DNA of 49,865 nt from an uncultured delta proteobacterium (GCA_963803975.1 CAWDOY010000002.1:1-49865), one strand, 5' to 3'. Positions 28,778-47,647 are shown, numbered from the stretch's first letter. Made by a program: numbers and translations. The notes: generated by a model not told the origin, from the sequence alone.

Positions 28778-28874
28778 TCGTTACCGAAAAAGGCAAACTA
28801 TCTGAAAAGGTAGGACGCAAAGCCACTGGCCTAAGTCCGTTTCTAAAGGATATGGCAGCAGGGTTGCCGGGCGA
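28778..28874 (+). ncRNA. c-di-GMP-I (GEMM-I) riboswitch
   Basis: GGCAAAC-TATCT-GAAA-AGGTAG-GACGCAAAGCCACTGGCCTAAG...ATGGCAGCAGGGTTGCC matches GEMM-I: GNRA P2 loop, GACGCAAAG junction, CTAA receptor in P3. Confidence 0.9.
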
Positions 28875-28895
28875 ATACAGTACCTCTCAGGGAAT

Positions 28896-30775
28896 GTGTT
28901 TCGCACGGAAATACTTCTGGATGGTACTGTGAAAACATTATCAGACATACAAGCTAATACTCCGACATCCTTATCTGCACGCATATCCTGTAGCATCCCT
29001 TTTTTTCTAGTAATCCCATTATTTCTTATTTTTTGCGTTACTCATGTTTATGCTGGTCAGGTAACATTAGGCTGGGATCAAAATACAGAACCAGACCTTG
29101 CGGGCTATAAAATCTACTATGGTAATTCGTCAGGAAATTATACTCAAAGCAAGGATGTCATAGGCAAGACTGCTACCTCTTGCATTATTACTAATCTAAC
29201 AGAAGGACAGACATATTATTTTGCAGCAACTGCGTATAACAGCAGCCTGGTGGAAAGCAATTATTCTGCAGAAGTTTCTTGTACTATTACCCCTGCAACG
29301 ACCAGCGTGCCGACAACCACCACGACCGTGCAGCCGACAACCTCAAGCAGCACCTCGTCAATTATCCCGACAACCAGCATCCCTACAACCACGACGACGA
29401 TACGGCCGACAACCACCACGACCGTGCAGCCAACAACCTCAAGCAGCACCTCGTCAATTATCCCGACAACCAGCATCCCTACAACCACGACGACGATACG
29501 GCCGACAACCACCGACGGCACCAACACCGTGCAGCCGACAACCTCAAGCAGCACCTCGTCAATTATCCCGACAACCAGCATCCCTACAACCACGACGACG
29601 ATACGGCCGACAACCACCACGACCGTGCAGCCGACAACCTCAAGCAGCACCTCGTCAATTATCCCGACAACCAGCATCCCTACAACCACGACGACGATAC
29701 GGCCGACAACCACCACGACCGTGCAGCCAACAACCTCAAGCAGCACCTCGTCAATTATCCCGACAACCACGACGACGATACGGCCGACAACCACCACGAC
29801 GACGATACGGCCGACAACCACCACGACCGTGCAGCCAACTACCTCAAGCAGCACCTCGTCAATTATCCCGACAACCACCACGACTGTGCAGCCAACTACC
29901 TCAAGCAGCACCTCGTCAATCATCCCGAAACCGACTTGCAACTACCTCGACGGTCATACCCGACAACCACCACTACCAGCAGTGCATCCACGACTACTGC
30001 AGGAGGTGGTGGCGGGGGTGGAGGCGGGGGTGGAGGAACACCAGCGTCAACAACCACAACAACGGTTCAGACGATAACTACCACCACTGCGGTAGAGATA
30101 AGCACAACAACGGTTCCGGTAGAGACAACGACTACCATTAAGATAAACACAAGCCCTGTGGCGAATGCAGGGTATGACCGCAGTGTACAGGCAGGGGATA
30201 CGGTGCTGCTCGACGGTTCCAGTAGCTACGATACCGATGGTAATGTCTTGCAGTATCGCTGGAAACAGATTTCCGGCCTCCAGGTTATCCTGGAAAATGA
30301 GAATGAGGTTATCGCCTCGTTCGTCGCAGAAAGCGAAGGTTTTTATGAATTTGAATTAACCGTATCTGACGGTATCTTTGAAAGTAGCGATATCGTGCTT
30401 ATAGAAATAACAGAAAAAACCATTCAGCTTCTATCACCAGGTAACGGTGAAGTATTTTTCAGTCGCCCAACACTACGCTGGGACGGAAAGGGATGCGACA
30501 GCTTTAAGGTATATCTGTCAAGAGATGGAAAGCGATTTTATGAGGTTGGTGAGACAGCAGAGGAAAACTTTACCGTGCGACCGCTGACGAACTTTTTGTA
30601 TAGCACTAATAAAAAAGATTTTTCACCAATATACTGGAAGGTGTTAGGGAAACAGGACGGAGAGGGAAATATATGGTTAGAGAGCCCAACCTGGCAGTAT
30701 TACAATATAAGAAAAAATGTCCTTATTGAAAATTTCTTTACCTGGCTAACTTCTGTAATTAATGCATCAAAATAG
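28896..30775 (+). CDS. Secreted/surface protein: signal peptide, fibronectin type III domain, Thr/Ser-rich repeat stalk, poly-Gly, PKD-like domain; frameshifted near 29930-29960 (start may be GTG 28929)
   Basis: VYA-GQVTLGWD..DLAGYKIYYG..LTEGQTYYFAATAYN..ES.YS FN3; second frame gives PVANAG..V.LDGSSSYDTDG..YRWKQISG..YEFELTVSDG PKD/REJ-like domain. Confidence 0.85.
29307..29927 (+). repeat. 96-nt tandem repeat (PTTTTTVQPTTSSSTSSIIPTTSIPTTTTTIR) with truncated later units
   Basis: Unit starts at 29310, 29406, 29502, 29607 (previous unit has 9 extra nt), 29703, then partial units. Confidence 0.92.
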
Positions 30776-30869: not shown

Positions 30870-30945
<76 letters not shown>

Positions 30946-30975: not shown

Positions 30976-31004
30976 TTTATAAAAGAAAATCGGTTTGTTG
31001 TCAA
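30976..31004 (-). promoter_or_regulatory. Sigma-70 promoter of tRNA-Asn
   Basis: TTGACA-17 bp-TATAAA on the minus strand ~30 nt upstream of the tRNA. Confidence 0.65.
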
Positions 31005-31040: not shown

Positions 31041-32468
31041 TTAAAACATCTCTGCGTCAGTCCAGCGGACCATCTCGCCGAGGCAGGGCAGGCCATCATG
31101 ATGCCACATCATCGAGGGCGTCGGCATCTTGCCCGGCGGGCAGATGCGTGAAACCCCGAGGCGCGCAAACAGATTAAACATCTCCGCGCGCCGCTCCTCT
31201 CCCACCGCAAGCCCGGCATTCTGCATATACCCTTTGATGGGTGCAAGATAATTGACAATATCTTTCAGGTCCGGCAGCGGAACAATGCGGATAAACCGGT
31301 GCAGAGGAGAGGAAAGAAATTCCTTCAGCGGCTCATACACGACGGTCCACGACAGGTTTTCTGCCGCCCGCATTAATACATTCTCTCCCGCAAGCTCCCT
31401 GAGCTCATAGGTATTGTGCAGGTGCCTGAGCACTGCTGCATCTTCAATATTGAGCCGTGCCGGAGGAGCCTTCTGCTCCTGGGTTTTCATTGCCTGCTCC
31501 AGCAGTGGCATAAATTCCTTGGGGCTCACCGCGCCGCCCTCTTCCAGAAAATAGACCTGAGGCGAGATGCAGGCGAACTGGTCAAAGGTGGACACATCAT
31601 AGGCTATTTTTTGCGCAAGCCCGGGGGCAGCTTTTTTATTTAGCGCTTCCCTTCCCACCGCCCCAAAGCCGATCCTGTGGCTGTGGGAGATTACCCTGGT
31701 GCCCGGCGGCACCCGCTTGCACACAGAGGTGCAGGTTGCTTCGCTGCCGTAGACAATAATAACGCTGCAGTGGTTAAAAAGAATTTTTTCAATTTCCTCA
31801 TCGCCGCCATGCCAGGAAAGTATCGCCAGGCAGTTGCCTAGTTCCGGATCAATTTCTTTCAGCGTTTCCGCGTACAGGGGCGGAAATATGGGCTCTTCCC
31901 GCGAAGCCTTTCCCATAATCGGGGCCTTCACCAGAAACGAGCGCATCACGCTCAAATGCGGGAGACCGGGAATATTGGAGGAAAATATGGCAGCTGTCAG
32001 CTCAGGTCCTGTTGCTTTTGAATGGCAGCCGCGCTCTTTTGAATAATGAAACCCGTCGAGAAATGCCGGGTCTCCAAGCTCTGAGCGAAGTGCCCGCAGC
32101 AGGTCGTCCCTGCGGGAGGAGAGATGCTCCACCCTTATGGATTCCCTGACCATCTCGGGAGAAAAGCCGGTAAACAGGGAAATGGCCTCAACCGCAGCAA
32201 CTTTTTTCGGGGATGTATCATCAAGCCATTGCTCTGAAGCCCGGTCCAGAATGTCTGCGATGGTTGCAACCGGCAAAGATTCAAGATAGGCTTTTTTTTC
32301 TTTTAAAAAGGCTATGACCTTCTCCAGGAACCGGGGCGTGACGACAGGAAACTCCACCCGCATAACCGCGTCTTGCTCGGGGAATTCATGAACGGAATAG
32401 CTGAAGCCTGAAATTTCCGCGCGGAGCGGTTCCGGAAGGTAGTAGCCTTTTACCGCGAGCTCTCTCAT
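31041..32468 (-). CDS. Acyl-CoA reductase, LuxC family
   Basis: SSNIPG, K.S.EEP, YGS, H.H.IGF, FDQFACISPQ catalytic Cys, GVSRICPPG..P...WHHDG. Confidence 0.9.
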   Translation of the reverse strand: MRELAVKGYYLPEPLRAEISGFSYSVHEFPEQDAVMRVEFPVVTPRFLEKVIAFLKEKKAYLESLPVATIADILDRASEQWLDDTSPKKVAAVEAISLFTGFSPEMVRESIRVEHLSSRRDDLLRALRSELGDPAFLDGFHYSKERGCHSKATGPELTAAIFSSNIPGLPHLSVMRSFLVKAPIMGKASREEPIFPPLYAETLKEIDPELGNCLAILSWHGGDEEIEKILFNHCSVIIVYGSEATCTSVCKRVPPGTRVISHSHRIGFGAVGREALNKKAAPGLAQKIAYDVSTFDQFACISPQVYFLEEGGAVSPKEFMPLLEQAMKTQEQKAPPARLNIEDAAVLRHLHNTYELRELAGENVLMRAAENLSWTVVYEPLKEFLSSPLHRFIRIVPLPDLKDIVNYLAPIKGYMQNAGLAVGEERRAEMFNLFARLGVSRICPPGKMPTPSMMWHHDGLPCLGEMVRWTDAEMF

Positions 32469-33562
32469 GACTTCTTTGTTATCTCCTCTATAGAAAGCGA
32501 ACAGCCGCGTGCCTCCGAGCCGCGGGCACGGCCGAGAATCTCAAATCCCTGTTCGCAGCGCCGGCCGATGTCATCGGTCTGAATGGCAGCAACCCGCTCC
32601 AGATTCGTCAGGTCAAGATGCCAGAGAACACCTTTTTCACCAAGCGGAACCTCTTTCATGGTGCGTGGGTCAAAAACCAGCGTCCTGGTCCAGGGCGGGT
32701 TTTCCTTGCAGCGTTTATCCGGAGAGCCGTTGAAATGATTTTTAAGGGCATTGTCATAAAATTGTGAGCCAAGCTCGGTCATACCCAAAAGATTAATACT
32801 CATAGCGGGCGGAATCCCCAGGAACCTGCTGCCAAGGGAGAGAAATTCATCCCGCGCTATCTCTCTCTCCTTACCCTTATACCCACCAGCATCAAGCGTT
32901 CTGCTTCCGGCTGGAAGGTTGAAGGCAAGCCCCTGCAGCGCGCAGTAGTCAAAGAAGGTTAAGAATCCAAGCGATGCGCCAATGAGCGCGATTGAAATGT
33001 TTTCGTGCTCAGCGAGCTTCAGCTCTTTTGCCAGCTCCTCGGGAACGAAGCCCCGTTCTCCTATCAGAAAGCGGCTTCCCGGCAGACCATATTTTTTTTT
33101 AAGCTGCTCCATGCCATAGGCCATTATCATGTGCGGTGCTTTTTCCGGGGGCGGGGCAATTATGAGAAAGCGATATTTGCCGCTGTCGGGGAACAGGCAG
33201 CGCCGGGCATTTTCAAGGATCGCGGTATCCATGAGCTCAAGACCTTCTTCAGAAAACAGGGCGCGGCCTTTTTTAACCCCTTGGGTGGTGCCACTGGTGC
33301 TGAAGATCCGCTTTGCTTCAGCCGGCGGTTTTGAAAAAAGCTCAAACAGTTTGAACCCTTCTGTTGAGATGCCGGGAATGTCGCGCCAGGAAGAAACCTT
33401 GCCTGGTGCAGCGCCCCTTTTATCACAGAGTTTCTGATAGATCGGGATATTTGTATACTGGAACGAAAACACTTCAAGCGCCAGTCGGTTGAAGGCGTTC
33501 TCGTCGCGATTTGTAAAAGAGCTTTTAATATATTCTGTTATGCGGTGATAGATAGTCGCCAT
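32465..33562 (-). CDS. Acyl-protein synthetase, LuxE family
   Basis: FSTSGTT P-loop, GGYKG, GMTELGSQ, IQTDDIG, C-terminal GRARGSEARGCS with acyl-accepting Cys; overlaps LuxC-like start. Confidence 0.9.
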   Translation of the reverse strand: MATIYHRITEYIKSSFTNRDENAFNRLALEVFSFQYTNIPIYQKLCDKRGAAPGKVSSWRDIPGISTEGFKLFELFSKPPAEAKRIFSTSGTTQGVKKGRALFSEEGLELMDTAILENARRCLFPDSGKYRFLIIAPPPEKAPHMIMAYGMEQLKKKYGLPGSRFLIGERGFVPEELAKELKLAEHENISIALIGASLGFLTFFDYCALQGLAFNLPAGSRTLDAGGYKGKEREIARDEFLSLGSRFLGIPPAMSINLLGMTELGSQFYDNALKNHFNGSPDKRCKENPPWTRTLVFDPRTMKEVPLGEKGVLWHLDLTNLERVAAIQTDDIGRRCEQGFEILGRARGSEARGCSLSIEEITKKS

Positions 33563-33596
33563 AATGTAATCAAGGCTGAAAGCTGGCCGCTGTGCG

Positions 33597-34856
33597 CTAA
33601 AGATGCAGAGCTACCGCTTTTTTTGTCAGGAGAAATTCGATGAAATCAAACAGCTCGTTTTCTTCCAAAGATTTATCCGCAAGATGCTCCGTGATGGTTT
33701 TAATTCCCGCGCAGGAGTTTAAAAACGCTTCTATACCCTTTCGTTTGACACCGTATTCTGCGGCAATACGCGCGGCATTCTCTGCTGACACAAGCAGTTT
33801 TGGCCGCAGGTTCTTTGCCGGCCGCGGCAGGTCCTTAAAACCCGGCGTGATCTTCACGTCTTGTGCCGCATAGGCAAACAGACAGGGCTCGCAATTGAAT
33901 TTAAGCTTGAAAAGGTGCTTATAGGCGCTGAAGCCGGCAACAATGCCGTCGCCGATTGATCTGCCGACGGTTGCGTAAAGCCCGGTCACATCTCCTGCGG
34001 CATACACACCGGGAAGGCTTGTCTTCATTTCCCGGTCAACTTCAATAAACCCGCGTGCGTCCTTCTTTAAAGCCGCACTGTCAAAATCATAGAGAGGCGA
34101 CAGCTCGTAAGAATTATAATCAAGCAGAACTTTCTTGCAGGGTATAAACCGCTCCTCCCCGCCTTTTAAAAGAACCCGTACCCCTTCGAGCGCTCCTTGT
34201 CCTTCGTAGCGAATAATTTTGCCCTGTAAAACGGACCCGGCAGCAGCAGGAAACGGAGCCTCTGCCGCGTTTGAATCAATCAGATAGATGACCGTGTGCC
34301 GTCCCCTGTTGCAGGCCTCAATCAGGTCAACAAGGTTCCGGGTAAATTCATTGCCCACAATGAGGGCGGTCTGCCTGCCATCCATGCTGAAAAAATTGTT
34401 GAGCAGCTCCTCGAAAAACTCATAGCCCATATAGGTGATGGCGATCTGCTTCAGGTAATCCTGCTCATTGCAGAGGCTGCGAAAACCTGTGGCAATAATG
34501 ACCGCGAGCGTGCGAATTGTTTCCCCCGCGTCGGTATGGATTATTTTAATTGCCCCATCCATCTCAAGTTTAATGACCCGTGACGGGATGAGGGGTATTT
34601 CAAGATCTTCAATATCTTTCCTGAAGCGGCCCACCACATCCGCGCCCATGAGATGAAAAGATGGCCCCGTGAGCATGCAGGAGCGCCACTTGGCAAGACC
34701 GCCGAGCCCTGCTTTATCAAAGATGACCGTGCTGCAGGGCACGGCCTTGTAGCTCTTGACCCAGCGGGTGCGGATGGCCGCGGTCATCCCGGCCGGGCCG
34801 GCGCCGATGACAGCGACATCGTAGTCGTATGGAGCAATAGAGGACATGGTGGACAT
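33597..34856 (-). CDS. TrxB-fold NAD(P)/FAD-dependent oxidoreductase with C-terminal extension
   Basis: VIGAGPAG, IIATG, TSLPGVYAAGD; no CxxC redox pair at the TrxB position; ~100 aa extra C-terminus. Confidence 0.85.
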   Translation of the reverse strand: MSTMSSIAPYDYDVAVIGAGPAGMTAAIRTRWVKSYKAVPCSTVIFDKAGLGGLAKWRSCMLTGPSFHLMGADVVGRFRKDIEDLEIPLIPSRVIKLEMDGAIKIIHTDAGETIRTLAVIIATGFRSLCNEQDYLKQIAITYMGYEFFEELLNNFFSMDGRQTALIVGNEFTRNLVDLIEACNRGRHTVIYLIDSNAAEAPFPAAAGSVLQGKIIRYEGQGALEGVRVLLKGGEERFIPCKKVLLDYNSYELSPLYDFDSAALKKDARGFIEVDREMKTSLPGVYAAGDVTGLYATVGRSIGDGIVAGFSAYKHLFKLKFNCEPCLFAYAAQDVKITPGFKDLPRPAKNLRPKLLVSAENAARIAAEYGVKRKGIEAFLNSCAGIKTITEHLADKSLEENELFDFIEFLLTKKAVALHL

Positions 34857-34870
34857 TTTTAAAGATGTTG

Positions 34871-34942
34871 AGCGTTCAGCTGTCAGCGATCAGCTCATGC
34901 GGCTTACCGGACCTGAAAGCTGAAGGCTGACAGCTTATAGCT
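34871..34942. repeat. Heptamer-repeat inverted element (AGCNNTC / CTGANAG)
   Basis: AGCGTTC AGCTGTC AGCGATC AGCT ... CTGAAAG CTGAAGG CTGACAG CTTATAG CT, arms complementary. Confidence 0.65.
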
Positions 34943-34944
34943 GT

Positions 34945-36558
34945 TTATGTAAACACATCCCGCTTTGCAGGTTTTTTATCAAGGCCTTTTAACTTCCAGT
35001 ACAGAGACCGGTAGGTGCAGTAGACCCGGCCCTTGAACGGCGTATTATATTTCCTGGCATCGGGGTGCAGGAAGCAGAAGTGATCACATTTCAGCTTCTG
35101 CATCTCTTCAGAAAATTCGTGGGCGTTATACTGCTTGTCCGCGCCGGTAAAGAAGGTGTTGTTATAATACCCGAGGGCTGAGTAGGTGTCTGAATCCTGC
35201 CCGCCGTGGGAGCGGTAAAAATCCATGAAGGTTGATCGGTCGCTGACAATGCCGTATTTTTCAGGATGCAGGAACTGCGGGGCCCCCGGCTCGATCTGGA
35301 TGGTCCATACCATCATGCGCTTCAGGATTTTCTTATAGCGCTTGCTGATAGTCGCCATCATCTGCTTGGTCTGCATTGCCTCGTCTATGGTTTCGTGCGG
35401 GATGCCCACGGTAAAAAACATGTCCAGGTAGATATCCCGCTCCTTCATGAAGTCAAGGGTCTCATAGAGCTCCTGGTTGGAGTAGAAGAAGCCCTTGTTC
35501 ATCTTGCGCACACGCTCAGCTGATGATTCAGCGGATATGGCAAGTATTGAGTATTTGCCGGGGAATGTTTCCTTGAACGCTTCCATAAAGCTTTTTGTCG
35601 GCAGGGCCCAGCACTCAAAGTACCAGTCAAGCCCCAGGTTCTTTTTTCTGATCAGCTTGAACAGCTCCTGAAAATAGCGGTCGTCCTTGGGCGTCGGGTC
35701 ATAGCAGACCGACATGGTCTGGTAGCCGTAGGACTTGGCCTGCTCCATCGACTCAACCACCTTCTCCGGCTCTCTGAAGATGACCTTTTTCCGTCCGCTG
35801 ATAATCAGCTGCCCCTCGTAGCTGCCGCCGCAGAATGAGCAGTTCACCGGGCAGCCCCGGCCTATCGCGAGGGGAAAGAGCGAGGTACCGATGGAGTGGT
35901 GCTTGATATTTTTCTCCGGAGAGAAATTTTTCATCCACGCCAGGGGAAAGCTGAAGGAGCGCACATAGGTGGGGTAATTTTTCAGAAGCTTGAGATTCGT
36001 GAAGTTGAGCTCATCAATATCTTTTTTCTCGGCAACATAGCTCAGGGGATTTTCAACAATCTCTGCGCCCCTGCGCCAGGTAAGATTCGGAACCGGGCTG
36101 AAATCAGCGGCATTGCCGGAGAGTGCCTGCATGAGAGCAACGACCGGCCTTTCACCATCGCCCCGCACCACGGCATCAATGCAGGAAAAGTTTTCAAGGA
36201 CCTCTTTGGCAAAAAAGCTTGCGGTAAAGCCGCCGAGAACAATCAGGATATGGGGATAACGCTCTTTAATTTTTTTTGCCACTTCTATGGTATCGTATGC
36301 CTGGTAATGCCAGTGAATGGGCATGCCGATTACCTTCACCTTTTTATCCTTCAGCCACTCAACGAGAGAGAAGGTCTGGTCTTCAATCCATTCGACACCC
36401 AGATGTATAATCTGCGATGAGTAGCCGTTTCTGTTCAGGTAGTCAGACATGGCAAAAATGCCCATGGGCATGAAGGTGATGTTCATGAACTCGCCAAGCG
36501 GCTTGTAGAAGCTGCTTTTCTTGGGTACATGCACAAAAAGAAAATCGATCTGTTCCAC
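34945..36558 (-). CDS. B12-binding domain radical SAM protein
   Basis: PMGIF, LGGFTAS, RGDGE, GRGCPVNCSFC; AGGAG RBS before GTG. Confidence 0.9.
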   Translation of the reverse strand: MEQIDFLFVHVPKKSSFYKPLGEFMNITFMPMGIFAMSDYLNRNGYSSQIIHLGVEWIEDQTFSLVEWLKDKKVKVIGMPIHWHYQAYDTIEVAKKIKERYPHILIVLGGFTASFFAKEVLENFSCIDAVVRGDGERPVVALMQALSGNAADFSPVPNLTWRRGAEIVENPLSYVAEKKDIDELNFTNLKLLKNYPTYVRSFSFPLAWMKNFSPEKNIKHHSIGTSLFPLAIGRGCPVNCSFCGGSYEGQLIISGRKKVIFREPEKVVESMEQAKSYGYQTMSVCYDPTPKDDRYFQELFKLIRKKNLGLDWYFECWALPTKSFMEAFKETFPGKYSILAISAESSAERVRKMNKGFFYSNQELYETLDFMKERDIYLDMFFTVGIPHETIDEAMQTKQMMATISKRYKKILKRMMVWTIQIEPGAPQFLHPEKYGIVSDRSTFMDFYRSHGGQDSDTYSALGYYNNTFFTGADKQYNAHEFSEEMQKLKCDHFCFLHPDARKYNTPFKGRVYCTYRSLYWKLKGLDKKPAKRDVFT

Positions 36559-36616
36559 TGATAGGTCTCCTTTGGCGTTGCGGAGTTTAGGGGTTATGAG
36601 TTCAGGAGCCGGTAAC

Positions 36617-37126
36617 TCAAGAATTTAATTTGTTTTTCATTTCCTCTTCAAGGAACTTCAGCAGCCCGCCTTTTTCCAGCACACGTTGAATATATTCCGG
36701 CAGGGGACTGCAGGGAAGCGCCCAGCCCTGATGCGTGCTTCTTACCTCAAGCTTTTCAAGGTCAATAACAAGCGGCTCTCCCTGAACTGCTTTTTTTGCT
36801 ATGCCCGGACAGGTTATGAGATAAATCCCCTGGTTCGTCAAGTTGCGGAAGAAAATACGGGCGAACGACTCGGCAACTATTGCCCGGATGCCGTTATAGG
36901 CAAATGACCGGGCAGAGGATTCGCGGCTTGAGCCGCAGCCGAAGTTTTTGCCGGCAACGATAATATCATCTTTTGCCATCCGGGAAAAGAAATCCTCTGC
37001 GCCTTTGGACAGCCCCGAAGCAATCCGGTCTTTTTTCAGGCTGAAGTAGTCCGGCGGATGCAGGATGTCCGTATTGACATGGTCGCCCAGCAAAAACGCG
37101 TTTCCAATGAATGATTTTTTTAACAT
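36617..37126 (-). CDS. Homoaconitase / 3-isopropylmalate dehydratase small subunit (HacB/LeuD-like)
   Basis: GDHVNTDIL.P, AGKNFGCGSSRE, AESFARIFFRN, GGLL. Confidence 0.92.
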   Translation of the reverse strand: MLKKSFIGNAFLLGDHVNTDILHPPDYFSLKKDRIASGLSKGAEDFFSRMAKDDIIVAGKNFGCGSSRESSARSFAYNGIRAIVAESFARIFFRNLTNQGIYLITCPGIAKKAVQGEPLVIDLEKLEVRSTHQGWALPCSPLPEYIQRVLEKGGLLKFLEEEMKNKLNS

Positions 37127-37145
37127 GCGTTAGACGTTACCATTG

Positions 37146-37206
37146 GACGCAGATGCCCGCAGATTATAAGTATTTTTATCTGCTCAGATCAGCGTAAATC
37201 CGCGCC
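37146..37206. repeat. 10-nt-period inverted repeat element (CGCAGAT / ATCTGC)
   Basis: ACGCAGATGC CCGCAGATTA ... ATCTGCTCAG ATCAGCGTAA ATCCGCG. Confidence 0.6.
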
Positions 37207-37209
37207 CTG

Positions 37210-38472
37210 TTAACAATATTTTCTCGGGTCAGTAATTTTTCCCTCAATAGCCGAGGCTGCAGCAGTCGCTGTTGAGCTGAGGAAAACCCTGCTGCCCTTT
37301 CCTCCCATCCTGCCGTCAAAATTCCGGTTCGAGGTAGCAAGGCAGGTTTCGCCCTCGGCAATGATGCCTTTATCAATTTTTCCGCACGGGCCGCAGCTCG
37401 GGTTGCAGATGGCAGCGCCGGCTTCTATGAGTGTCTGAATGTAGCCCTTTTCCATGGCCGCAAGATAAATCCTGTTTGAGGAAGGAATTACCACAAGCCG
37501 GCAGTAGGGCGCGGCTTTTTTCCCCTTCAGGATTTCTGCAGCAATCCGCAGGTCTTCAACCCTCCCCCCCGTACAGGAGCCGATATACACCTGATCAACA
37601 TGCTCTCCTGCCACATCGCCGACCGGCACTGCATGGCTCGGATGCGGCGGAATAGCAACCTGCGGAGCAAGAGAGGATACGTCGAGCGTTATCTCCCGTT
37701 CATACACCGGCTGTTCTGGTACGGTGACCGCAGCGTAATTATCAGCACCTTTTTCTTTCAGATAGGATTGCGTTATTGCATCGGGGATAAATATGCCCGC
37801 CTTTGCCCCGCCCTCCACCACCATGTTTGAGATGGAGAAGCGGCTGTCCATGGTGATGCCGTTTTTAGTGCTGTCCGCAAACTCAAGCGACCGGTAGAGC
37901 GCCCCGTCTTCTTCCAGGTCCCCAAGCACTTTTAATATTATGTCTTTGCCGAGGATGAACGGGCCTTGCGTGCCGGTGAAGGTGATTTTAAAACACTCCG
38001 GGACCTTGAGCCAGATAGTGCCGGTAAGGAGGCCATAGAGAACATCGGTTGAGCCCATGCCGGTTGCAAGACAGCCGAGCGCTCCAGCCATAACAGTATG
38101 CGAGTCCGCGCCGATCACGAGCTTTCCCGGAACAATCGCCGGATGCTCAACCAGCAGCTGGTGGCAGATGCCGGAAAAGAGCTCGAGATTTTTAATCTGC
38201 TCTTTTTTGCAGAAGTCGAGAAATTTCTTCAGTATGTTCGCCCGCTCTTCATTAGCAGGCGGCGCAAAATGGTCGGCGGTGACAAGCACCCGGTCCCGGT
38301 CCCAGATTTTTCCCCCGAGGCGGTTGAAATCATCTACGAGCAGCGCGGTGGTGGCATCGTGGCCGAGAATAAAATCGAGATAAAACTCCGCGTAGTCATT
38401 TTCTGCAACAGGCCGGTTGCCGGTCCGATGCTTAAGGAGAATGTGGTGCGTGTAGGTATTAGAGCTTTTCAT
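37210..38472 (-). CDS. Homoaconitase / 3-isopropylmalate dehydratase large subunit (HacA/LeuC-like)
   Basis: DHFAP, GICHQ, GADSHT, IGSCTGGR, PSCGPC (three cluster Cys), TSNRNF.GR.G. Confidence 0.93.
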   Translation of the reverse strand: MKSSNTYTHHILLKHRTGNRPVAENDYAEFYLDFILGHDATTALLVDDFNRLGGKIWDRDRVLVTADHFAPPANEERANILKKFLDFCKKEQIKNLELFSGICHQLLVEHPAIVPGKLVIGADSHTVMAGALGCLATGMGSTDVLYGLLTGTIWLKVPECFKITFTGTQGPFILGKDIILKVLGDLEEDGALYRSLEFADSTKNGITMDSRFSISNMVVEGGAKAGIFIPDAITQSYLKEKGADNYAAVTVPEQPVYEREITLDVSSLAPQVAIPPHPSHAVPVGDVAGEHVDQVYIGSCTGGRVEDLRIAAEILKGKKAAPYCRLVVIPSSNRIYLAAMEKGYIQTLIEAGAAICNPSCGPCGKIDKGIIAEGETCLATSNRNFDGRMGGKGSRVFLSSTATAAASAIEGKITDPRKYC

Positions 38473-38553
38473 GGTGAAGTAAAACCACAAGCACACTGAT
38501 TCTGTCTTGTGGTTTGCGGGTTAATGGTAACTGATCAGCGGCAGCAGCGCGCG

Positions 38554-39834
38554 CTACTCTGTGGCGTACAGAGAGGAGTTGTCTTCAAGATAGCGGGAAG
38601 CCATTCCCTTCTGCTCGCCTTTCCGCGATTGATTGATCACTCTGTTGACGATGTTCCAGAACACGCGCTCATCAAATCCGAGATGCTTCTGGTTGAAGAC
38701 CTCAACGATATTTTTCATGAACTGAAAGGCACCCTTGGAATCGCTCTCCTTTTCCCTTTTAACATCTGCAACAATGCGGTCAATCTCAGATGCCTTGGCC
38801 TCGATCCCCTGTTCCTGCAGCAGGCGCCGCACCAGAGCACGGCCCGAGTGCTTTCCCAGGACAAATGCCCGGTCCCGGCCGACCTCTTCCGGCCGGATAG
38901 GTTCATAGGTTTCGAGATTTTTCAGAATCCCGTCCACGTGGATGCCGGACTCGTGCCTGAACGCGTTGTAGCCGACGACTGATTTATTGGGCGCGACGAT
39001 GATCCCGGAGTAATCTTCCACAAGCTTTGAAAGGGCATAGATCTTGTCGGTATTTACGTGGTGCTTTATTTTAAGCAGGTTTCCTGTTGCCATCACCACT
39101 TCTTCCAGGGATGCGTTTCCTGCCCGCTCGCCTATGCCGTTGACGGTCAGGGTCGGATATTCCACGCCTGCTTCAATGGCTGCGAGCGTGTTGGCGGTGG
39201 CAAGGCCGAAGTCATTGTGGCAGTGAATGCCGAAGCGGATCTTTTCTTTCATCTTCTGCCTGATGGTGAGGCAGAGATCACGTATTCCCTGTGGGGTGAG
39301 AACCGAGACGGTATCGCAGATGATAATTTTATCAGCGCCGGCACGCGCCACCCGGTCAAAGAGCGGAATAATAAAGTCCATGTCAGCCCGGGCCGTGTCT
39401 TCGGCCACAAAATCCACCACCATGCCGTGGCTGACTGCATATTCAACCGACTGGAGGGCCCGCTCTTCCGCCTCTGCACGGGTGGTGCTGAATTTATAGT
39501 TGAGATGGATGTCACTGACCGGCGTAAACAGAAATGCTTCCCGCGCTCCGCAGCTCAGCGCTACATCCACATCCTGTTTTTTGGCGCGAATGGAGACCGC
39601 CAGGTTGATCTTCCATTTTCTACTTAAAATAGTTTTAATATTTTTTGCCTCATTGAGAGAAACGATGGGCAGCCCGACATCTACCGTATCGATGCCTGCT
39701 TCCTCCATCGCCTCAATGAGCCTGATTTTTTCCCTGCAGGAAAAGAAGACTCCGGGAGCCTGCTCGCCGTCGCGAAGGGTCTCATCAATGATATATATTT
39801 CTTTTGCTCTGGTTTCTTCCATAGTATCCCCCAT
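38554..39834 (-). CDS. Homocitrate/isopropylmalate synthase family (NifV/AksA-type, no LeuA regulatory domain)
   Basis: [41 protein letters not shown]; 426 aa. Confidence 0.92.
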
Positions 39835-39885
39835 TGATTTGTAGACACCGGGAACACCGGCTGCGGTTCTGCGTTTCCGGCGGTT

Positions 39886-41277
39886 TCATGGTGCTGCAGC
39901 GTCTATTTTAAATTTTCCGAACTTTGGCGTCCGCGTTACCCGCATCACGTTAAAATACTGCCAGGGATCAAGCGGCGTTGACCAGTGCGGGTATTTTTTA
40001 CACCAGGCCTCTGCCATCTGGAAGTCCTCCCGGGTCAGGTTGTGCGGGTAGTGAAAGGTCGGGCTCAGGTAATCGCCGGAGGGTCCCATAAAGACGATGT
40101 CTTCCGGTTTTGCTACGGCAAAGAGCGGCGTATCAGGATAAATCCGTATGCCGAAGACGGTGAGAATATTGTCCGGCTGCGGCATGCTTTCCAGAAACTT
40201 AAAACCGTCGGCGATGGTCTCCCTGGTTTCCCCGGGACCGCCTAACAGAAGCTGAAATGAGGTGGCAATGCCGGCTTTTTTATAGCAGGCGGAGGCCCGG
40301 GCAATATCCGCCTGGGTGAACCCTTTACCCATCCGCTCCAGCATCTCCTCTGAGGCGACATCAATCCCCACGTCCGCACCGATGCAGCCCGAGCGCGCCA
40401 TGAGCGAGGCCATGTCATCAGAGATGCCCACCGGATTTACGTTGGCGTACCATTTTATTTTTACCTCCCGGCGGATGATCTCTTCACAGATGGCGCAGGC
40501 ATGGTTTGTGGGGAAGTTAAAGACGCTGTCAACAAAGAAAAAATAGTCAAGGTTCCAGAACCGCTGCGCTTCAACGATTTCATCGACTGCTCTCCGGGGC
40601 GATTTCAGACGGTAGGTTTTGCCGTCAATGCGCGGATGCTCGCAGTATATGCACGTAAAGGCGCAGCCCCGCTTGGTCTGGAGGCCGATATAACCTTTTT
40701 TCTGGATATACTTTTCATAATCAAGCAGATCAAACGCTGCCGGCGGCATCATTTCTACATCCGGTATGAGCTGCTGCGGGTTGCAGGTATAGCTCCCGTT
40801 TGTCTGATAGACAAGGCCCGCGATATGCTCATAGGATGAGCCTTCGGTGAGGGCACGAGCCAGCTGCACGCAGGCTATTTCGCCCTCACCCTGGATGCCG
40901 AACTTGAGGCCAAGGTATTTCAATGCTTCTACCGGAAACAGGGAATATCCCGGGCCGCCGACAACAAACGGAACATCGGTGAGCGTCTTTAAAAAAGCAA
41001 CTACTTCCCTGATGTCAGGAAGGTAGTAGCGCAACGCCGACATGCAGGTATTGTCAATATTGCGGATGGACAGCCCCACAAGCTGAGGCTTGAATTCATT
41101 AATTGTTTCCTGAAATATTCTCTGCTCTTCTTTTTGCGAAAAGAGAAACATCCGGTCAATAACCCTGATGTCATGCCCCGCCTTTCTCAGGCTTGAAGCA
41201 ACAAGCGATAGACCGATGGGAGCAGCAGGTATGGGCCAGCGCTCCTGGTTGGTATTTATTAAAAGTATTCTCATCAA
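39886..41277 (-). CDS. B12-binding domain radical SAM protein (resembles the lipid-biosynthesis/ladderane-associated type)
   Basis: MRILLINTN..P.PAAPIGL, SIRNIDN, GGPGYSLFP, QTKRGCAFTCIYC, FVDSVFN, LGGPGET, GIRIYP. Confidence 0.9.
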   Translation of the reverse strand: MMRILLINTNQERWPIPAAPIGLSLVASSLRKAGHDIRVIDRMFLFSQKEEQRIFQETINEFKPQLVGLSIRNIDNTCMSALRYYLPDIREVVAFLKTLTDVPFVVGGPGYSLFPVEALKYLGLKFGIQGEGEIACVQLARALTEGSSYEHIAGLVYQTNGSYTCNPQQLIPDVEMMPPAAFDLLDYEKYIQKKGYIGLQTKRGCAFTCIYCEHPRIDGKTYRLKSPRRAVDEIVEAQRFWNLDYFFFVDSVFNFPTNHACAICEEIIRREVKIKWYANVNPVGISDDMASLMARSGCIGADVGIDVASEEMLERMGKGFTQADIARASACYKKAGIATSFQLLLGGPGETRETIADGFKFLESMPQPDNILTVFGIRIYPDTPLFAVAKPEDIVFMGPSGDYLSPTFHYPHNLTREDFQMAEAWCKKYPHWSTPLDPWQYFNVMRVTRTPKFGKFKIDAAAP

Positions 41278-41473
41278 CGCCCTCTCAGATCCATAAAAAC
41301 CAATAGCGATAAATACTTTACATGTAAACCATTTACATATAAGTAATGGTTTTGCCTTGATTTGTCAACCAAAAACTATTGCATGGATATATGTCTGAAA
41401 TTGCTTGACTTAATACATGTGGCTTGCTGTTGGGGCGGGATACTTTCCCTGCTGTGGGGGGCCGGGAAGGGTT

Positions 41474-42863
41474 TTAATTACCATCTCTGGCCTTGAGAAA
41501 CAGATTGATGAGATTTTTATCAAGCTCTTCTTTGCGGGATATTTTCAACTGTTTTTTAAACTCTGCTAACGAATACCACTGCCCGTGCCATGGAACGGTG
41601 CCCTCCGGCGCTTCCATATTTGCCGAAAGCATGGCGGGTCACCTCTCCGGCATGCTCCACGTACCCCACGTTTCTCACGCAGAGCACAATCTGCTTTTCA
41701 ACAATTCCCGACACTAATGACCACTGAGCATCATCAATCTGCATACAGAAATCTGCCAGCCGCGGAATAATATCTTCCCGCTCCTTCTCTACCCTGCCAA
41801 GGTTAACAAACACGACATTACCTATCAGGCGATGGCTTTTAAGTGCTTTTACAAACAGGCTGATCTCTTCGGGGTTGAGGCGGGGATGCTCCATCTGCAG
41901 AATCATGTGACGATTGGCGAGCGGGTAGATGTGGGTAAACACCTCAATATCAGCTGGATTTATGTCCCGGCCTAAAAAAAGCGTGTCTGTCTTGATACCG
42001 TAGACAAGTGCCGTGGCAAGGCGCTGGCTGATTTTGTGCTCCTGGGCAATCAGGTATTCTGCCAGGATGGTTGAGGTTGCCCCGTAGTGAACCCGGATAT
42101 CACAGAACGGGGCGTCACAGGTTTCCATCCGGGGGTGGTGATCGATAATGATATCTGCCCTGATTTCAGGATCGCCAAAGTAAAAGGGCTGGACATCAAC
42201 CATGGCGATCCGGGAATATTTTTCCAGGTCCGAGGCAGTTATTTTCAGCAGCTGTATGTCCAGAAGCTGCATCATGACCTGATTTTCGTTTCTGGTAACT
42301 TCACCAAAGGTAGCAATAGGCGCTGTTGTGCTGGTCCGGCCCAGAAGCGTCCGCAGCGCCAGCGCGCTGGCCAGGGCATCGGGGTCAGGGTCATGCTGGG
42401 TGAGAATAAGGATGTGCTCATGGCCGCTGGCGAGCTGCTGAAGCGCGGTCGCCTTTTTACGATTTTCTATCTTTACCCAGCATCGGGAAATATTGCCGAC
42501 GATGAGATCAGAGAGGGGAAGAAACGACACAGTATCATGGCGCTCACGTTCAGCAGTTGCGTCATCAGCATCGGTAAGCACCAGTATTGGGACTGCTGCA
42601 CACTGGAAACGCAGCGCTTCCAGCTGCTGGCTCATAGCGGGGGTACCGGAACAATCGAAAATTACCCGGTCCTCGGCAGTGAGTGCCAGTTCTCCGTAAA
42701 ATGTATTTGACAGCTCCATCTGTTTCAGAATGGTAAACTGTTTTTTCTCTACCGGTACCGGCACGGCGGTGTTATTCACGACAATTGCATGGTCCAGGGA
42801 CCGGAGATACCCTTTCAGCAGGGGCACGATATCCGGGTTCTGTAAGATAAGTATAGTGCGCAT
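41474..42863 (-). CDS. DHH family phosphoesterase with N-terminal extension, probable frameshift near 41570
   Basis: HDPDPDALAS, MVD, IIDHH, GIKTDT, GSAGGH; shifted frame continues LAEFKKQLKISRKEELDKNLINLFLKARDGN to 41474. Confidence 0.88.
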
Positions 42864-42925
42864 GGCTGTCCTATGGTGCGAGCTGAAGAACTGCTATGAA
42901 AATATCCATGGCGGCAGGTTATCTG

Positions 42926-43825
42926 TCAGCGAGATCTCTTAACCAGCAGATGAGGCCGTGAGGCCCTGATACTCATTATGGTTTTCCCCGAGCTGAAAAT
43001 TCTGACCGTGCCGGTTGATTCTGACACGGTAATGGCAATGGCATCGGTGCTGGCAGTTATGGCCGCGGCCGCGGCATGCCGGGCACCCAGGCCCCTGAGA
43101 GGAGCGGTTTTGCCGCCGCCGGCGTGCAGATACCTGCCGGCAGACACGACCACGCCGTCATCCCGTATGATGAAAGCGCCGTCTATGAGCGTCAGCTCTT
43201 TAATGCTTTCCTGTACTTTCGGGTCAGAAATCCTTCGCTCATCTTCCGGATAGCCCAGGAACGGATCAAAGATCATGGGCTTGGAAAGCTCATCCACTTT
43301 TTCCGTATCCCCGACCACAAATATGGTGCCCACCGAAACCCCTTCCCGTCCTTCACGGCCAATTTCCACTGCCAGGTTCACCAGAGCATACAGAACCTCA
43401 GTGGGAATATTTTTAGCTATCCGCTTTAAATCGCCCATTGAGATATGGCTGTAATGTTCCTCGCCTTTGACTATCCGCAGGCTGTCAACCAGCTTTGTGC
43501 CTGACAGGCTGTAGAGGCAGATAACCTTCTCGCCCTTTTTCAAGGTGCCCAGTTCCACAGCGGTGCGCAATATATAGTCCAGACGCTCCCGGCGGGCTAC
43601 CCCCTTAAAGTCACAGATAACGGTTTCATGGAAAATGTCTTCGGCAAGTTTTTCCTGTGAGAGGGCAACCAGGAACTGGCACTTTTCGCTGTAGGCAGGG
43701 ATTGTTTTTAAGAGGACTGCTTTTTCGCAGACGATGAGGATCTTTTTTATTTTCAGTTTTTCTGCAATAGCAATGGCTTCTTCAATGAGCACGATGCTTT
43801 CTTTTTCTGCTTTTTCACCGGTCAC
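42926..43825 (-). CDS. Diadenylate cyclase, DacZ-like (DisA_N domain)
   Basis: EGREG..VGTIFVVGD, IDGAFII, GLGARHAAAA, VSESTG; soluble N-terminal domain, no TM helices. Confidence 0.9.
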   Translation of the reverse strand: MTGEKAEKESIVLIEEAIAIAEKLKIKKILIVCEKAVLLKTIPAYSEKCQFLVALSQEKLAEDIFHETVICDFKGVARRERLDYILRTAVELGTLKKGEKVICLYSLSGTKLVDSLRIVKGEEHYSHISMGDLKRIAKNIPTEVLYALVNLAVEIGREGREGVSVGTIFVVGDTEKVDELSKPMIFDPFLGYPEDERRISDPKVQESIKELTLIDGAFIIRDDGVVVSAGRYLHAGGGKTAPLRGLGARHAAAAAITASTDAIAITVSESTGTVRIFSSGKTIMSIRASRPHLLVKRSR

Positions 43826-46519: not shown

Positions 46520-47504
46520 CTACGTTAGTGTTTTGTCAGCCAAACCTTGCTGCCAGGCCCAGGCAGTTCGCACAATGTCTTCAAGGCTGTAGCTGATTTT
46601 CCAGTCTAATACCTTCTGCGCCTTGTCGCTCGATGCGATGAGATAGGCAGGGTCTCCGGGCCGGCGCTCTGTTTCGACCACCTTAAAATCCCGGCCCGTC
46701 ACCCGGCGAACGGTTTCAAGCATTTCCCGCACCGTAAATCCGGAGCCGCTTCCCAGGTTGAAATAACTGGTCACGCCCCCCTCCAAGGAGATAGTCAACT
46801 CCCCGGATGTGGGCATCGGCAAGATCGTTCACATGGATGTAGTCGCGCACGCAGGTGCCGTCTTTGGTCTCATAGTCAGTGCCGAACACTTTAATGCTCT
46901 CCCGCCTCCCCAGTGCCGCGTCAAGGATAAGCGGGATGAGGTGCGTCTCCGGGACATGGGCCTCACCTATTTCCGCGTCAGGGTCGGCGCCGGCCGCGTT
47001 GAAATAGCGGAAGCGGATGCTGCGGAAGCCGTAGGCGGAAGCATAGTCTTCAAGTATCTGCTCGACCATGAGCTTACTTTTACCATAGGGATTGATGGGG
47101 GCTTTGCAATCCTCTTCCGCGATCGGGATTCTCTCCGGCATGCCATAGACTGCGGCAGTTGAGGAAAAGATGAATTTATCCACCCCGTGTTTTCGCATCT
47201 GCTCAAGAAGCGTGATGGTGTTCTGCACATTATTTTTATAATATTTCTCAGGCTCTGCCACTGATTCACCCACCTCGATGAACGCGCAGAAATGCATCAC
47301 CACGTCGATTTTAAACCGGGAAAACACCGAGCTTAAACACTCCGCGTCGCCGATATCACCCTGGATAAACTCTCCCCACTTGGCAAAGGAGCGATAGCCG
47401 TGTATCAGGCTGTCATAGACGACAACGGAGAAGCCTCTTTTGTGCAGGAGCTTGCAGACATGAGACCCGATGTAGCCGGCGCCGCCTGCCACTAAAATGG
47501 CCAT
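46520..47504 (-). CDS. galE: UDP-glucose 4-epimerase, frameshifted near 46785
   Basis: GGAGYIGSH, FSSTAAVYG, YGKSK, RYFNAAGA, ETHLIP, DGTCVRDYIHV; second frame FNLGSG..RRPGDP..AWAW. Confidence 0.93.
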
Positions 47505-47647
47505 ACAGGAATCCTTCGAATAAAAAAATAACCGCAAAGACGCAAAGAAACGCGAAGCCTGCCGAATTGTTTCAGATGTTGCAAGGTAGTATAGGAGAAT
47601 GAAATTTGGATGTCAAATAATAAGCGTATAGACCGGCATGGTGATGA

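Follow-up and report, generated by a model that had tools for sequence, protein, structure and literature searches.

What does an operon make that joins a 2-oxoacid condensing enzyme and a HacAB dehydratase to a LuxE/LuxC-type reductase pair and two B12-dependent radical SAM (rSAM) enzymes? The locus lies in a 49,865-nucleotide stretch of an uncultured delta proteobacterium, here called the window. We predict, giving it an even chance, that the operon condenses acetyl-CoA with a bulky 2-oxoacid, reworks the substituted malate via HacAB and a flavoprotein, forms an aldehyde through LuxE/LuxC and methylates it with the B12 rSAMs. The eight contiguous minus-strand genes ending before a tRNA-Asn, as described in the initial annotation, are all intact and real, and their coordinates were confirmed with slight corrections to the starts of rSAM1 and the synthase.

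Table 1 Features of the operon and its boundaries, in window coordinates
Feature	Position	Strand	Remarks
rSAM1, B12-dependent radical SAM protein, TIGR04072-like, family-specific add-on	39886..41277	-	likely start ATG 41274, 462 aa; CAFTCIYC at 204
LeuA/HCS-family acetyl-CoA:2-oxoacid condensing enzyme without regulatory domain, HphA-like pocket	38554..39834	-	likely start ATG 39822, 422 aa
HacA/LeuC-type 4Fe-4S dehydratase, large subunit	37210..38496	-	Pfam, NCBIfam, motifs
HacB/LeuD-type small subunit	36617..37126	-	loop HPPDYFSL, common to flavoprotein-linked archaeal forms
rSAM2, B12-dependent radical SAM protein, TIGR04190-like, core gene	34945..36558	-	three extra invariant C-terminal cysteines
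TrxR-fold FAD protein, unnamed family, C-terminal winged-helix/RRE-like domain	33597..34856	-	no conserved CxxC, no second GxGxxA motif
LuxE-type acyl-protein synthetase	32465..33562	-	TSGTT, invariant Cys354; sole PDB match LuxE 7xc6_E, E 1e-34
LuxC-type acyl-thioester reductase	31041..32468	-	4-bp overlap with LuxE; invariant Cys300; sole PDB match LuxC 7xc6_A, E 3e-45
Perfect TTGACA hexamer, possible operon promoter	41337..41368	-	94 bp upstream of rSAM1; no good -10 match
tRNA-Asn(GTT), downstream boundary, probably outside pathway	30870..30945	-	own TTGACA...TATAAA at 31004; not adjoining LuxC in G003

Gaps between the genes, from rSAM1 to LuxC, are 51, 57, 83, 58, 88, 34 and -4 bp, and the end of LuxC lies 95 bp from the tRNA-Asn(GTT). 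Pfam cut-offs were passed for B12-binding and Radical_SAM (both rSAMs), HMGL-like and HCS_D2, Aconitase, Aconitase_C, Pyr_redox_2, LuxE and LuxC, and NCBIfam assigned a specific function to none of the eight proteins. A promoter scan returned 12 matches, the chance level, and the TTGACA upstream of rSAM1 was not among them. Three sediment metatranscriptomes from a single study contain the stretch, but the contig cover is low and flat and extends into the flanks, and this presence therefore does not establish transcription of the operon. One contig of run X4 (depth 2.2, short side 36 letters) joins 39869 to 41254, skipping rSAM1, and is too weak for use. Recent horizontal acquisition at the tRNA-Asn was rejected: GC3 of the eight genes is 0.56-0.68 against a median of 0.59 (729 long ORFs, 20 contigs), the operon is found in 4/4 genomes of the source family and adjacency to the tRNA is restricted to the genus.

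The identical eight-gene order was found in genome G003, and a seven-gene core (rSAM2, synthase, HacA, HacB, flavoprotein, LuxE and LuxC) in two phyla, which exceeds chance; co-occurrence in relatives, on which the earlier reading of the locus depended, is conserved. Of 13 flavoprotein-bearing genomes in the source phylum, 11 have all seven core genes (the source genome, G000, and 10 of 12 others), as do 9 of 11 in Myxococcota. The contiguous order rSAM2-synthase-HacA-HacB-flavoprotein-LuxE-LuxC is seen in 11 genomes, while G369, G207, G600 and G672 keep all seven genes though spread over two to three loci. Two B12-rSAMs, as initially described, are present here, but the conserved core has only one: rSAM1 and the eight-gene order are specific to the source family, where rSAM1 adjoins the synthase in all four genomes. 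In place of rSAM1, a U32 gene stands next to LuxC in 10 of the 12 other genomes of the source phylum. Membrane-related bacterial neighbors include DedA/VTT (G358 and G129) and MMPL (G207), and neither an aldehyde-consuming enzyme nor an exporter is a constant operon member. Tree-distance correlations for six core genes in 18 genomes, whose kin are not independent, range from 0.54 to 0.89, with no single partner of the flavoprotein standing out. Divergent flavoprotein homologs that stand apart from the module are seen in G637 and in G501, where the gene lies between radical SAM genes. Searches of 181 genomes from the phylum of G430 (Anaerolineales locus) and 181 from that of G432 (Pirellulaceae locus) yielded no member of the flavoprotein family. 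No description of the cluster was found in the literature searched, which comprised main texts and few subscription journals.

Separate housekeeping leuABCD genes are located elsewhere in the source genome, with leuA, leuC and leuD on contig C8 and a leuB-like gene together with cimA on C49. Further, a synthase gene is found next to isocitrate dehydrogenase on C3, and Si-citrate synthase with HacA/B on C54. As leucine, citramalate, citrate and futalosine genes are all encoded elsewhere, the operon represents an accessory pathway. The genome also has two PF00180 genes outside the operon, and its leuB might function in trans. No luciferase-family gene was detected in this genome (98% complete, 0 PF00296 matches; control positive in 9/14 genomes). 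The eight genes are a conserved accessory operon, which agrees with the dedicated pathway originally proposed.

Known 2-oxoacid elongation modules are LeuA/LeuCD/LeuB and the methanogen AksA/D/E/F. The operon resembles them in combining a synthase with a HacA/HacB-type dehydratase, but it lacks LeuB/AksF as well as IPMS or HCS pockets, and the housekeeping set is encoded elsewhere. Elongation, as initially assigned, needs a β-decarboxylating dehydrogenase of the LeuB/AksF type; none was found in the window, the bacterial loci fetched likewise contained none, and true chain elongation is thus not supported. The synthase has the intact DRE and HxH motifs of a DRE-TIM condensing enzyme, which very probably fixes its reaction type, and scores below every NCBIfam cut-off shown. 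Its pocket residues are S81/F101/D141/V143/I171/T228 (numbering of the 426-aa ORF), giving S/D/V/I/T here and S/N/V/F/S in most relatives. The homocitrate-synthase-like label could not be kept: the H/R/T/S/H pocket of HCS is absent and the protein falls below the TIGR02660 and TIGR02146 cut-offs. Isopropylmalate synthase was likewise rejected, as the L/E/S/N/E pocket of IPMS, which the genome's own LeuA on C8 does carry, is absent; neither set was found in any of the 120 nearest synthase homologs. An association of Ile171 with rSAM1 was also discarded, since Ile occurs in 42/120 homologs and is also found in G672, where no rSAM1 adjoins the cluster. HacA carries the intact GSCTGG and CGPC motifs of a two-subunit 4Fe-4S isomerase, and only generic HacA/LeuC and LeuD subfamily models of NCBIfam were passed by HacA/HacB.

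The closest described pocket is that of cyanobacterial Phe/Tyr homologation, where HphA reads A/D/A/M/S and hHphA A/N/A/F/S (Table 1 of PMC12961565). Compared with this residue table rather than by alignment, the window's synthase is similar but not identical, sharing 1/5 residues with HphA with the rest similar, and most relatives share 3/5 with hHphA. Both systems have a LeuA-family synthase with small or neutral pocket residues followed by an isomerase pair; the operon differs in lacking a dehydrogenase, in its additional flavoprotein, LuxE/LuxC and B12-rSAMs, and in having no adjoining NRPS genes. From its pocket, the synthase may use an aromatic substrate, which we rate slightly below an even chance, and another bulky hydrophobic 2-oxoacid is a somewhat less probable candidate. 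Small residues (A/S) likewise occupy the first two pocket positions of the LeuB-linked Thermoplasmata synthases, so that a small residue is not specific to aromatic substrates.

The flavoprotein has FAD motifs and a TrxR fold of two domains, with structural matches reaching Z 24 and Foldseek E 1e-21. A break in scores, from 1e-56 to 1e-15, sets it off as a distinct family of 64 matches. Although fold and FAD motifs are common to TrxR, AhpF, FNR and FFTR, it lacks a conserved CxxC and the second GxGxxA and carries a winged-helix tail. The TrxB-type assignment fails for want of thioredoxin reductase motifs: TYMGYE occupies the CxxC place, any CxxC is found in 2/52 family rows and the second-domain glycine motif in 4/52. 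CEPC at position 322 is not conserved in the family. A locus search on genome and metagenome contigs via the generic FAD motif returned ordinary TrxR-like genes only, and the ESM Atlas gave nothing for the tail.

Four of the core genes (synthase, HacA, HacB and flavoprotein) recur in archaea. Among 19 Thermoplasmata loci picked by rank, the flavoprotein follows synthase-HacAB in 10/19, a LeuB-type gene in 7/19 and both in 0/19, an exclusivity that tracks two synthase clades and is thus not independent evidence. The HacB loop is YFSL-type in flavoprotein-linked forms of bacteria and archaea, and YLT/YLD/YLN in LeuB-linked and LeuD forms. A UbiA-family gene, also membrane-related, lies near 8/10 archaeal loci. 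The archaeal form has a SPASM-type rSAM and no LuxE/LuxC, whereas the bacterial form has a B12-type rSAM and no UbiA.

LuxE and LuxC possess the adenylation motif and both cysteines of the described LuxE/LuxC relay (PMC12041015), the cysteines being invariant, and the fatty acid reductase (PDB 7XC6) is the sole PDB match of both profiles. NCBIfam scores are far under cut-off, at 80 of 750 bits for LuxC and 53 of 550 bits for LuxE. A bioluminescence lux operon was rejected, as the genome has no luciferase family; the operon has no LuxD-like gene. LuxE/LuxC-type reduction in a non-bioluminescence biosynthetic cluster is also seen in tambjamine TabE (10.1101/2025.08.11.669332) and the tetronate route of V. 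cholerae RfbN (PMC4772473); within the parts covered neither has a synthase/HacAB or radical SAM module, and the operon here lacks ACP and glycan genes.

CxxxCxxC is intact in both rSAMs, which score below the cut-offs of their nearest families (rSAM1, 319 of 360 bits for TIGR04072; rSAM2, 247 of 500 bits for TIGR04190). The best PDB match of rSAM1 is TsrM (6WTE, E 1e-41). A TsrM-type non-radical B12 methylase was nonetheless rejected: the Arg aligned with Arg69 is kept but Val replaces Glu273, rSAM1 is below all cut-offs, and the Arg, present in 98/120 homologs, does not mark the TsrM-type reaction.

Under the predicted pathway, the synthase would convert arylpyruvate and acetyl-CoA to 2-(arylmethyl)malate. 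By the chemistry of its family, HacAB would dehydrate this to the arylmethylmaleate, with possible rehydration to the 3-isomer. Occupying the position usually held by LeuB, the flavoprotein would then act on the HacAB product without NAD(P). We favor reduction of the maleate double bond with ferredoxin-type electrons and retention of both carboxyls, though as a tentative and, taken singly, rather unlikely assignment; no TrxR-fold enzyme is known to act on a dicarboxylate. With its motifs in place, LuxE would adenylate one carboxyl and pass it via Cys354 to Cys300 of LuxC, giving a semialdehyde. rSAM2 would carry out the core radical step, most simply a C-methylation; rSAM1 may add a further methyl in the source family, and other lineages add U32 hydroxylase-like genes. 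The product is likely a methylated small-molecule malic-acid derivative with one acid converted to an aldehyde, the aldehyde probably being an intermediate toward a membrane-linked product.

A rival in line with the elongation scheme of the initial annotation is full homologation before reduction. Here the flavoprotein as NAD-free LeuB substitute, or leuB acting in trans, would oxidatively decarboxylate the HacAB product, and the resulting 2-oxoacid, longer by one carbon, would be converted by LuxE/LuxC or later steps. The flavoprotein does take the LeuB slot (10 versus 7 Thermoplasmata loci) and a leuB-like gene is encoded in the genome. However, housekeeping LeuB is not expected to accept a bulky side chain, the fold matches include no TrxR-fold hydroxyacid dehydrogenase, and reducing a 2-oxoacid carboxyl would yield a glyoxal, a chemically awkward outcome. 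Despite the HphA/CD/B precedent (PMC12961565), we regard homologation as unlikely.

Alternatively, the flavoprotein may be only an electron carrier of the ferredoxin/flavodoxin-reductase type for an rSAM or LuxC. The 3-substituted malate itself would then undergo C4 reduction, the reaction proposed for V. cholerae RfbN, and end up on a surface glycan or lipid as an acyl or polyol substituent. Malate is reportedly the substrate in the RfbN route. FNRs and ferredoxin-dependent TrxRs are among the fold matches, and the flavoprotein occurs together with a radical SAM gene in the bacterial form, the archaeal form and G501; yet the partner rSAM changes between domains from B12 to SPASM type while synthase-HacAB-flavoprotein stays constant. 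For a glycan, the G207 flavoprotein lies within a glycosyltransferase/flippase cluster, one member of the rSAM2 family carries a fused polysaccharide pyruvyl transferase, and RfbN, with its LuxE domain, serves O-antigen tetronate synthesis (PMC4772473). Against this, no glycan cluster flanks the core among the neighbors scanned in 20/21 core-bearing bacterial genomes fetched, and the operon has no acyl carrier or acyltransferase, leaving this explanation with a low probability.

Ring closure giving a naphthol- or quinone-type head group, by radical cyclization of a benzylmalate semialdehyde onto its ring, hydroxylation (U32) and, in archaea, prenylation (UbiA), appears very unlikely. The carbon count of arylpyruvate plus acetyl would match hydroxynaphthoate, UbiA-family genes occur at 8/10 archaeal loci, and the tandem U32 genes of G266 and G369 are reminiscent of UbiU/UbiV. 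Neither mqnA/D nor menB is found in 7/20 bacterial operon genomes and 19/19 archaea, but the seven LeuB-type archaea also lack men and mqn genes, and LuxE/LuxC is missing from the archaeal form as UbiA is from the bacterial one. The other 13/20 operon genomes, including G000, carry futalosine or men genes (mqnA/D or menB), so the operon is not a replacement menaquinone route; its occurrence is not complementary to men/mqn.

Highly improbable is RiPP modification, with the tail as an RRE binding a precursor peptide that the rSAMs modify and a malate-derived unit caps: the tail matches the PbtF RRE (Z 7.2, rmsd 2.6, 68 residues) and the G501 homolog adjoins YcaO and a RiPP C-methyltransferase, but common arrangements also score around Z 7, GATOR1 winged helices score higher, the G501 homolog is tailless, the operon has no space for a precursor, no convincing small ORF lies upstream, and peptidase and transporter are absent.

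Returning to the predicted malate-derived aldehyde, the pathway is kept intact across two bacterial phyla, and partly in archaea, even where its genes are scattered, which argues for selection for one product. Three of its enzymes may represent new chemistry: a synthase of the LeuA family whose pocket is new, a flavoprotein of TrxR fold in the LeuB slot without disulfide or NADPH site, and an unassigned B12 radical SAM family. As a speculative extension that we consider improbable, synthase-HacAB-flavoprotein could be an old bacterial and archaeal module turning arylpyruvate into the head group of a membrane-bound cofactor or lipid, with the flavoprotein as a new TrxR-fold enzyme class acting on a dicarboxylate; archaea would prenylate it (UbiA and SPASM rSAM), and in bacteria it would be converted to an aldehyde and closed or methylated through B12 radical reactions, perhaps yielding a naphthol- or quinone-like ring by a route unrelated to men/mqn. 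If the LuxCE pair does act on a branched or aromatic dicarboxylate, the range of known carboxylate reductases would be extended.

The eight ORFs of the operon all lie on the minus strand of the window with intergenic gaps of -4 to 88 bp, tRNA-Asn follows 95 bp beyond the operon end, and the Pfam domain calls were borne out for all eight genes, confirming the gene run as initially annotated. Catalytic motifs are intact throughout, and the only NCBIfam models passed are the generic HacA/LeuC and LeuD subfamily models, none of which is function-specific. Several genes of the source genome (G000; 4.25 Mb, 98% completeness) are broken into two to three pieces, specifically galE, mqnE, a second HacA and a TIGR04190-like radical SAM protein (rSAM) (window 46520-47537; contigs C54 and C42), which suggests that the assembly is indel-prone; the eight operon genes are intact. 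The organisms named for the nearest homologs suggest that G000 belongs to Desulfobacterota. The surface-type gene 3' of the flanking riboswitch is large and contains fn3, Thr/Ser-rich repeats and PKD. The DacZ-like and DHH genes on the other side are likely a c-di-AMP pair; the DHH gene apparently shifts frame close to its 3' end, and the pair is not conserved beside the operon in genome G003.

Operon and flanking features in the window
Feature	Position	Strand	Remarks
c-di-GMP-I riboswitch and downstream surface-type gene	28782-30775	+	Rfam, riboswitch 85 bits; gene split across two frames (28896-30077, 29279-30775)
Eight-gene operon	31041-41277	-	
DacZ-like diadenylate cyclase, then DHH phosphodiesterase-like gene	41556-43825	-	Directly upstream of operon

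Separate leucine biosynthesis genes are found elsewhere in G000: leuA, leuC and leuD on contig C8 exceed their equivalog cut-offs and a leuB-like gene lies on C49 together with cimA, which also passes its cut-off, so the operon is not housekeeping. Another synthase adjoins isocitrate dehydrogenase on C3, while C54 encodes a Si-citrate synthase with a second HacA/B and, for the futalosine pathway, mqnC, a PF02621 gene and an mqnE that is broken into two pieces. No luciferase family member was found in this 98% complete genome.

The flavoprotein is the best marker of the operon, its family comprising 64 matches set apart from ordinary TrxR by an E-value gap from 1e-56 to 1e-15. Its profile matches 13 of 401 genomes in the window's phylum and 11 of 301 in the phylum of G429, identified as Myxococcota because G429 is a Polyangiaceae genome, and none in two further phyla (0/181 and 0/181). 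Besides G000, 10 of the 12 other flavoprotein-bearing genomes of its phylum have a complete seven-gene core; G428 has six of seven genes on a 7-kb contig and G404 four of seven in a fragmented assembly. The core is likewise complete in 9 of 11 flavoprotein-bearing Myxococcota; G637 and G501 encode a divergent flavoprotein without the rest of the module. The contiguous order rSAM2-synthase-HacA-HacB-flavoprotein-LuxE-LuxC is present in 11 genomes, the two halves of the core are swapped in G725, and in G369, G600, G672 and G207 all seven genes are retained but split over two to three loci, the break points being occupied by other genes. A LuxC profile matches 12/401 genomes at E <1e-180, all within the 13 flavoprotein-bearing ones, an agreement that is partly circular as the profile was built from these same loci. 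The initial annotation had proposed a dedicated pathway of 2-oxoacid elongation and methylation, and this holds in part: the accessory conserved pathway stands, its synteny recurring in both phyla, but a full elongation module is not supported, as a LeuB-type gene is absent from all bacterial core loci fetched. The synthase pocket is not that of a homocitrate synthase (HCS).

The window's family has the gene order rSAM1-synthase-HacA-HacB-rSAM2-flavoprotein-LuxE-LuxC. The additional rSAM1 adjoins the synthase in 4/4 genomes (in two pieces in G001) and has about 10 close relatives before identity drops to 41%. In quick trees, rSAM2 of this family groups with Myxococcota copies whereas HacA, flavoprotein, LuxE and LuxC group with their own phylum, a weak hint that rSAM2 may have been replaced at the same time as its positional move. 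Operon GC3 is native to the genome. One low-depth contig from run X4 omits rSAM1 almost exactly (window 39869-41254) and could be a strain without rSAM1 or an artefact. G002 contains two copies of the operon region (C520 versus C574/C425), which match the window at 93% and about 75% DNA identity and reflect either duplication or bin contamination. Instead of rSAM1, 10/12 other phylum genomes have one or two U32-family genes 3' of LuxC; the nearest U32 gene of G000, related to these, lies within a fatty-acid-synthase-type cluster on C12 (L126/L127, about 41000-58000) that also encodes several ketosynthases, a thioesterase, a dehydratase, two split rSAMs and a methyltransferase.

The predicted flavoprotein model (pLDDT 91) shares the TrxR fold but has neither a conserved CxxC nor a second glycine motif. 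R29, K34 and a C-terminal LFAY are among the invariant residues, and a winged-helix domain comes after the LFAY. The synthase profile also matches 108/251 Thermoplasmata genomes, from which 19 loci were fetched (17 of the top 25 and two lower-ranked); of the neighbor genes in these loci, three rSAM, three UbiA and four LeuB genes were scanned for domains. Ten loci are arranged as synthase-HacA-HacB-flavoprotein-rSAM/SPASM, eight of these being joined by a UbiA-family gene in convergent orientation, and seven as synthase-HacA-HacB-LeuB-type; two carry neither flavoprotein nor LeuB, one of which ends at a contig end. Because ten archaeal loci carry it too, synthase, HacAB and flavoprotein are the constant unit across domains, with the flavoprotein occupying the LeuB slot. 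Flavoprotein- and LeuB-type loci track two synthase clades, and the split therefore represents one event, not seventeen. In G501 (L121:1055-7458), a tail-less flavoprotein homolog is found among a RiPP-type C-methyltransferase rSAM passing TIGR03975, a YcaO gene and another B12-rSAM.

Five side-chain positions from the table in PMC12961565 were mapped via 6KTQ, 3RMJ and the LeuA of G000. The synthase pocket consists of S81, D141, V143, I171 and T228, most relatives having S/N/V/F/S, compared with the tabulated H/R/T/S/H for HCS, L/E/S/N/E for IPMS, A/D/A/M/S for HphA and A/N/A/F/S for hHphA (PMC12961565). Neither the HCS nor the IPMS set of that table is present, and the earlier label homocitrate-synthase-like does not fit the pocket. 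Of the 120 nearest synthase homologs, 119 have S or T at position 81, all have T, S or A at position 228, and 110 have Phe at a sixth pocket position, 101. The HacB loop reads YFSL and lacks the Arg that marks homoaconitase. Based on the pocket residues, the synthase would accept neither 2-oxoglutarate nor 2-oxoisovalerate but probably a bulky, hydrophobic substrate. An aromatic one is our best guess; however, the residues at the first two positions are small in LeuB-linked archaeal synthases as well, which counts against it.

The cysteines of the LuxE/LuxC relay, as described in PMC12041015, are invariant in 18 LuxE and 14 LuxC sequences, and the LuxCE complex is the sole PDB match of both proteins. 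RfbN (PMC4772473) and TabE (10.1101/2025.08.11.669332) are noted as enzymes of this type outside bioluminescence. A different cluster type, possibly a signal-synthesis locus, occurs at L192 and L193 (G133, G203): LuxE stands there with a LuxC that is fused to an AMP-binding domain, and with genes for an MFS transporter and HATPase/SpoIIE proteins. The best structure match of rSAM1 is TsrM; the equivalent of Arg69 is kept, family-wide among rSAM1 relatives, while that of Glu273 is absent (roles as given in PMC8992657). The rSAM2 family is large and unassigned (754 representatives at E 1e-30) and includes P0299, P0318, P0340 and P0373, which carry a polysaccharide pyruvyl transferase fusion or three to four radical SAM units per chain, the multi-unit chains being 1500-1900 aa long. 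Three unassigned B12-radical SAM genes occur in tandem on C1 of G000 (L130:5238-9946).

We hypothesize that the synthase would most likely condense an arylpyruvate with acetyl-CoA to an arylmethylmalate, which HacAB would convert to the maleate. The flavoprotein may then carry out a redox step on this product with both carboxyls retained, LuxE/LuxC would yield a semialdehyde, and B12 radical methylation would occur, twice in the window's family. Intact motifs underlie the reaction types proposed for synthase, HacAB and LuxCE; the substrate, the sequence of steps and what the flavoprotein and the rSAMs do are inferred. The initial annotation had the acid released as an aldehyde; membrane-related neighbors (UbiA, DedA, MMPL) suggest that the pathway continues beyond the aldehyde. 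A naphthoquinone route replacing men/mqn was ruled against by mqnA/D or menB in 13 of 20 bacterial operon genomes. The component families are known; no description of the cluster, the combination or the flavoprotein family was found in the literature searched. The operon is a variant of the recruited LeuA/LeuCD module.
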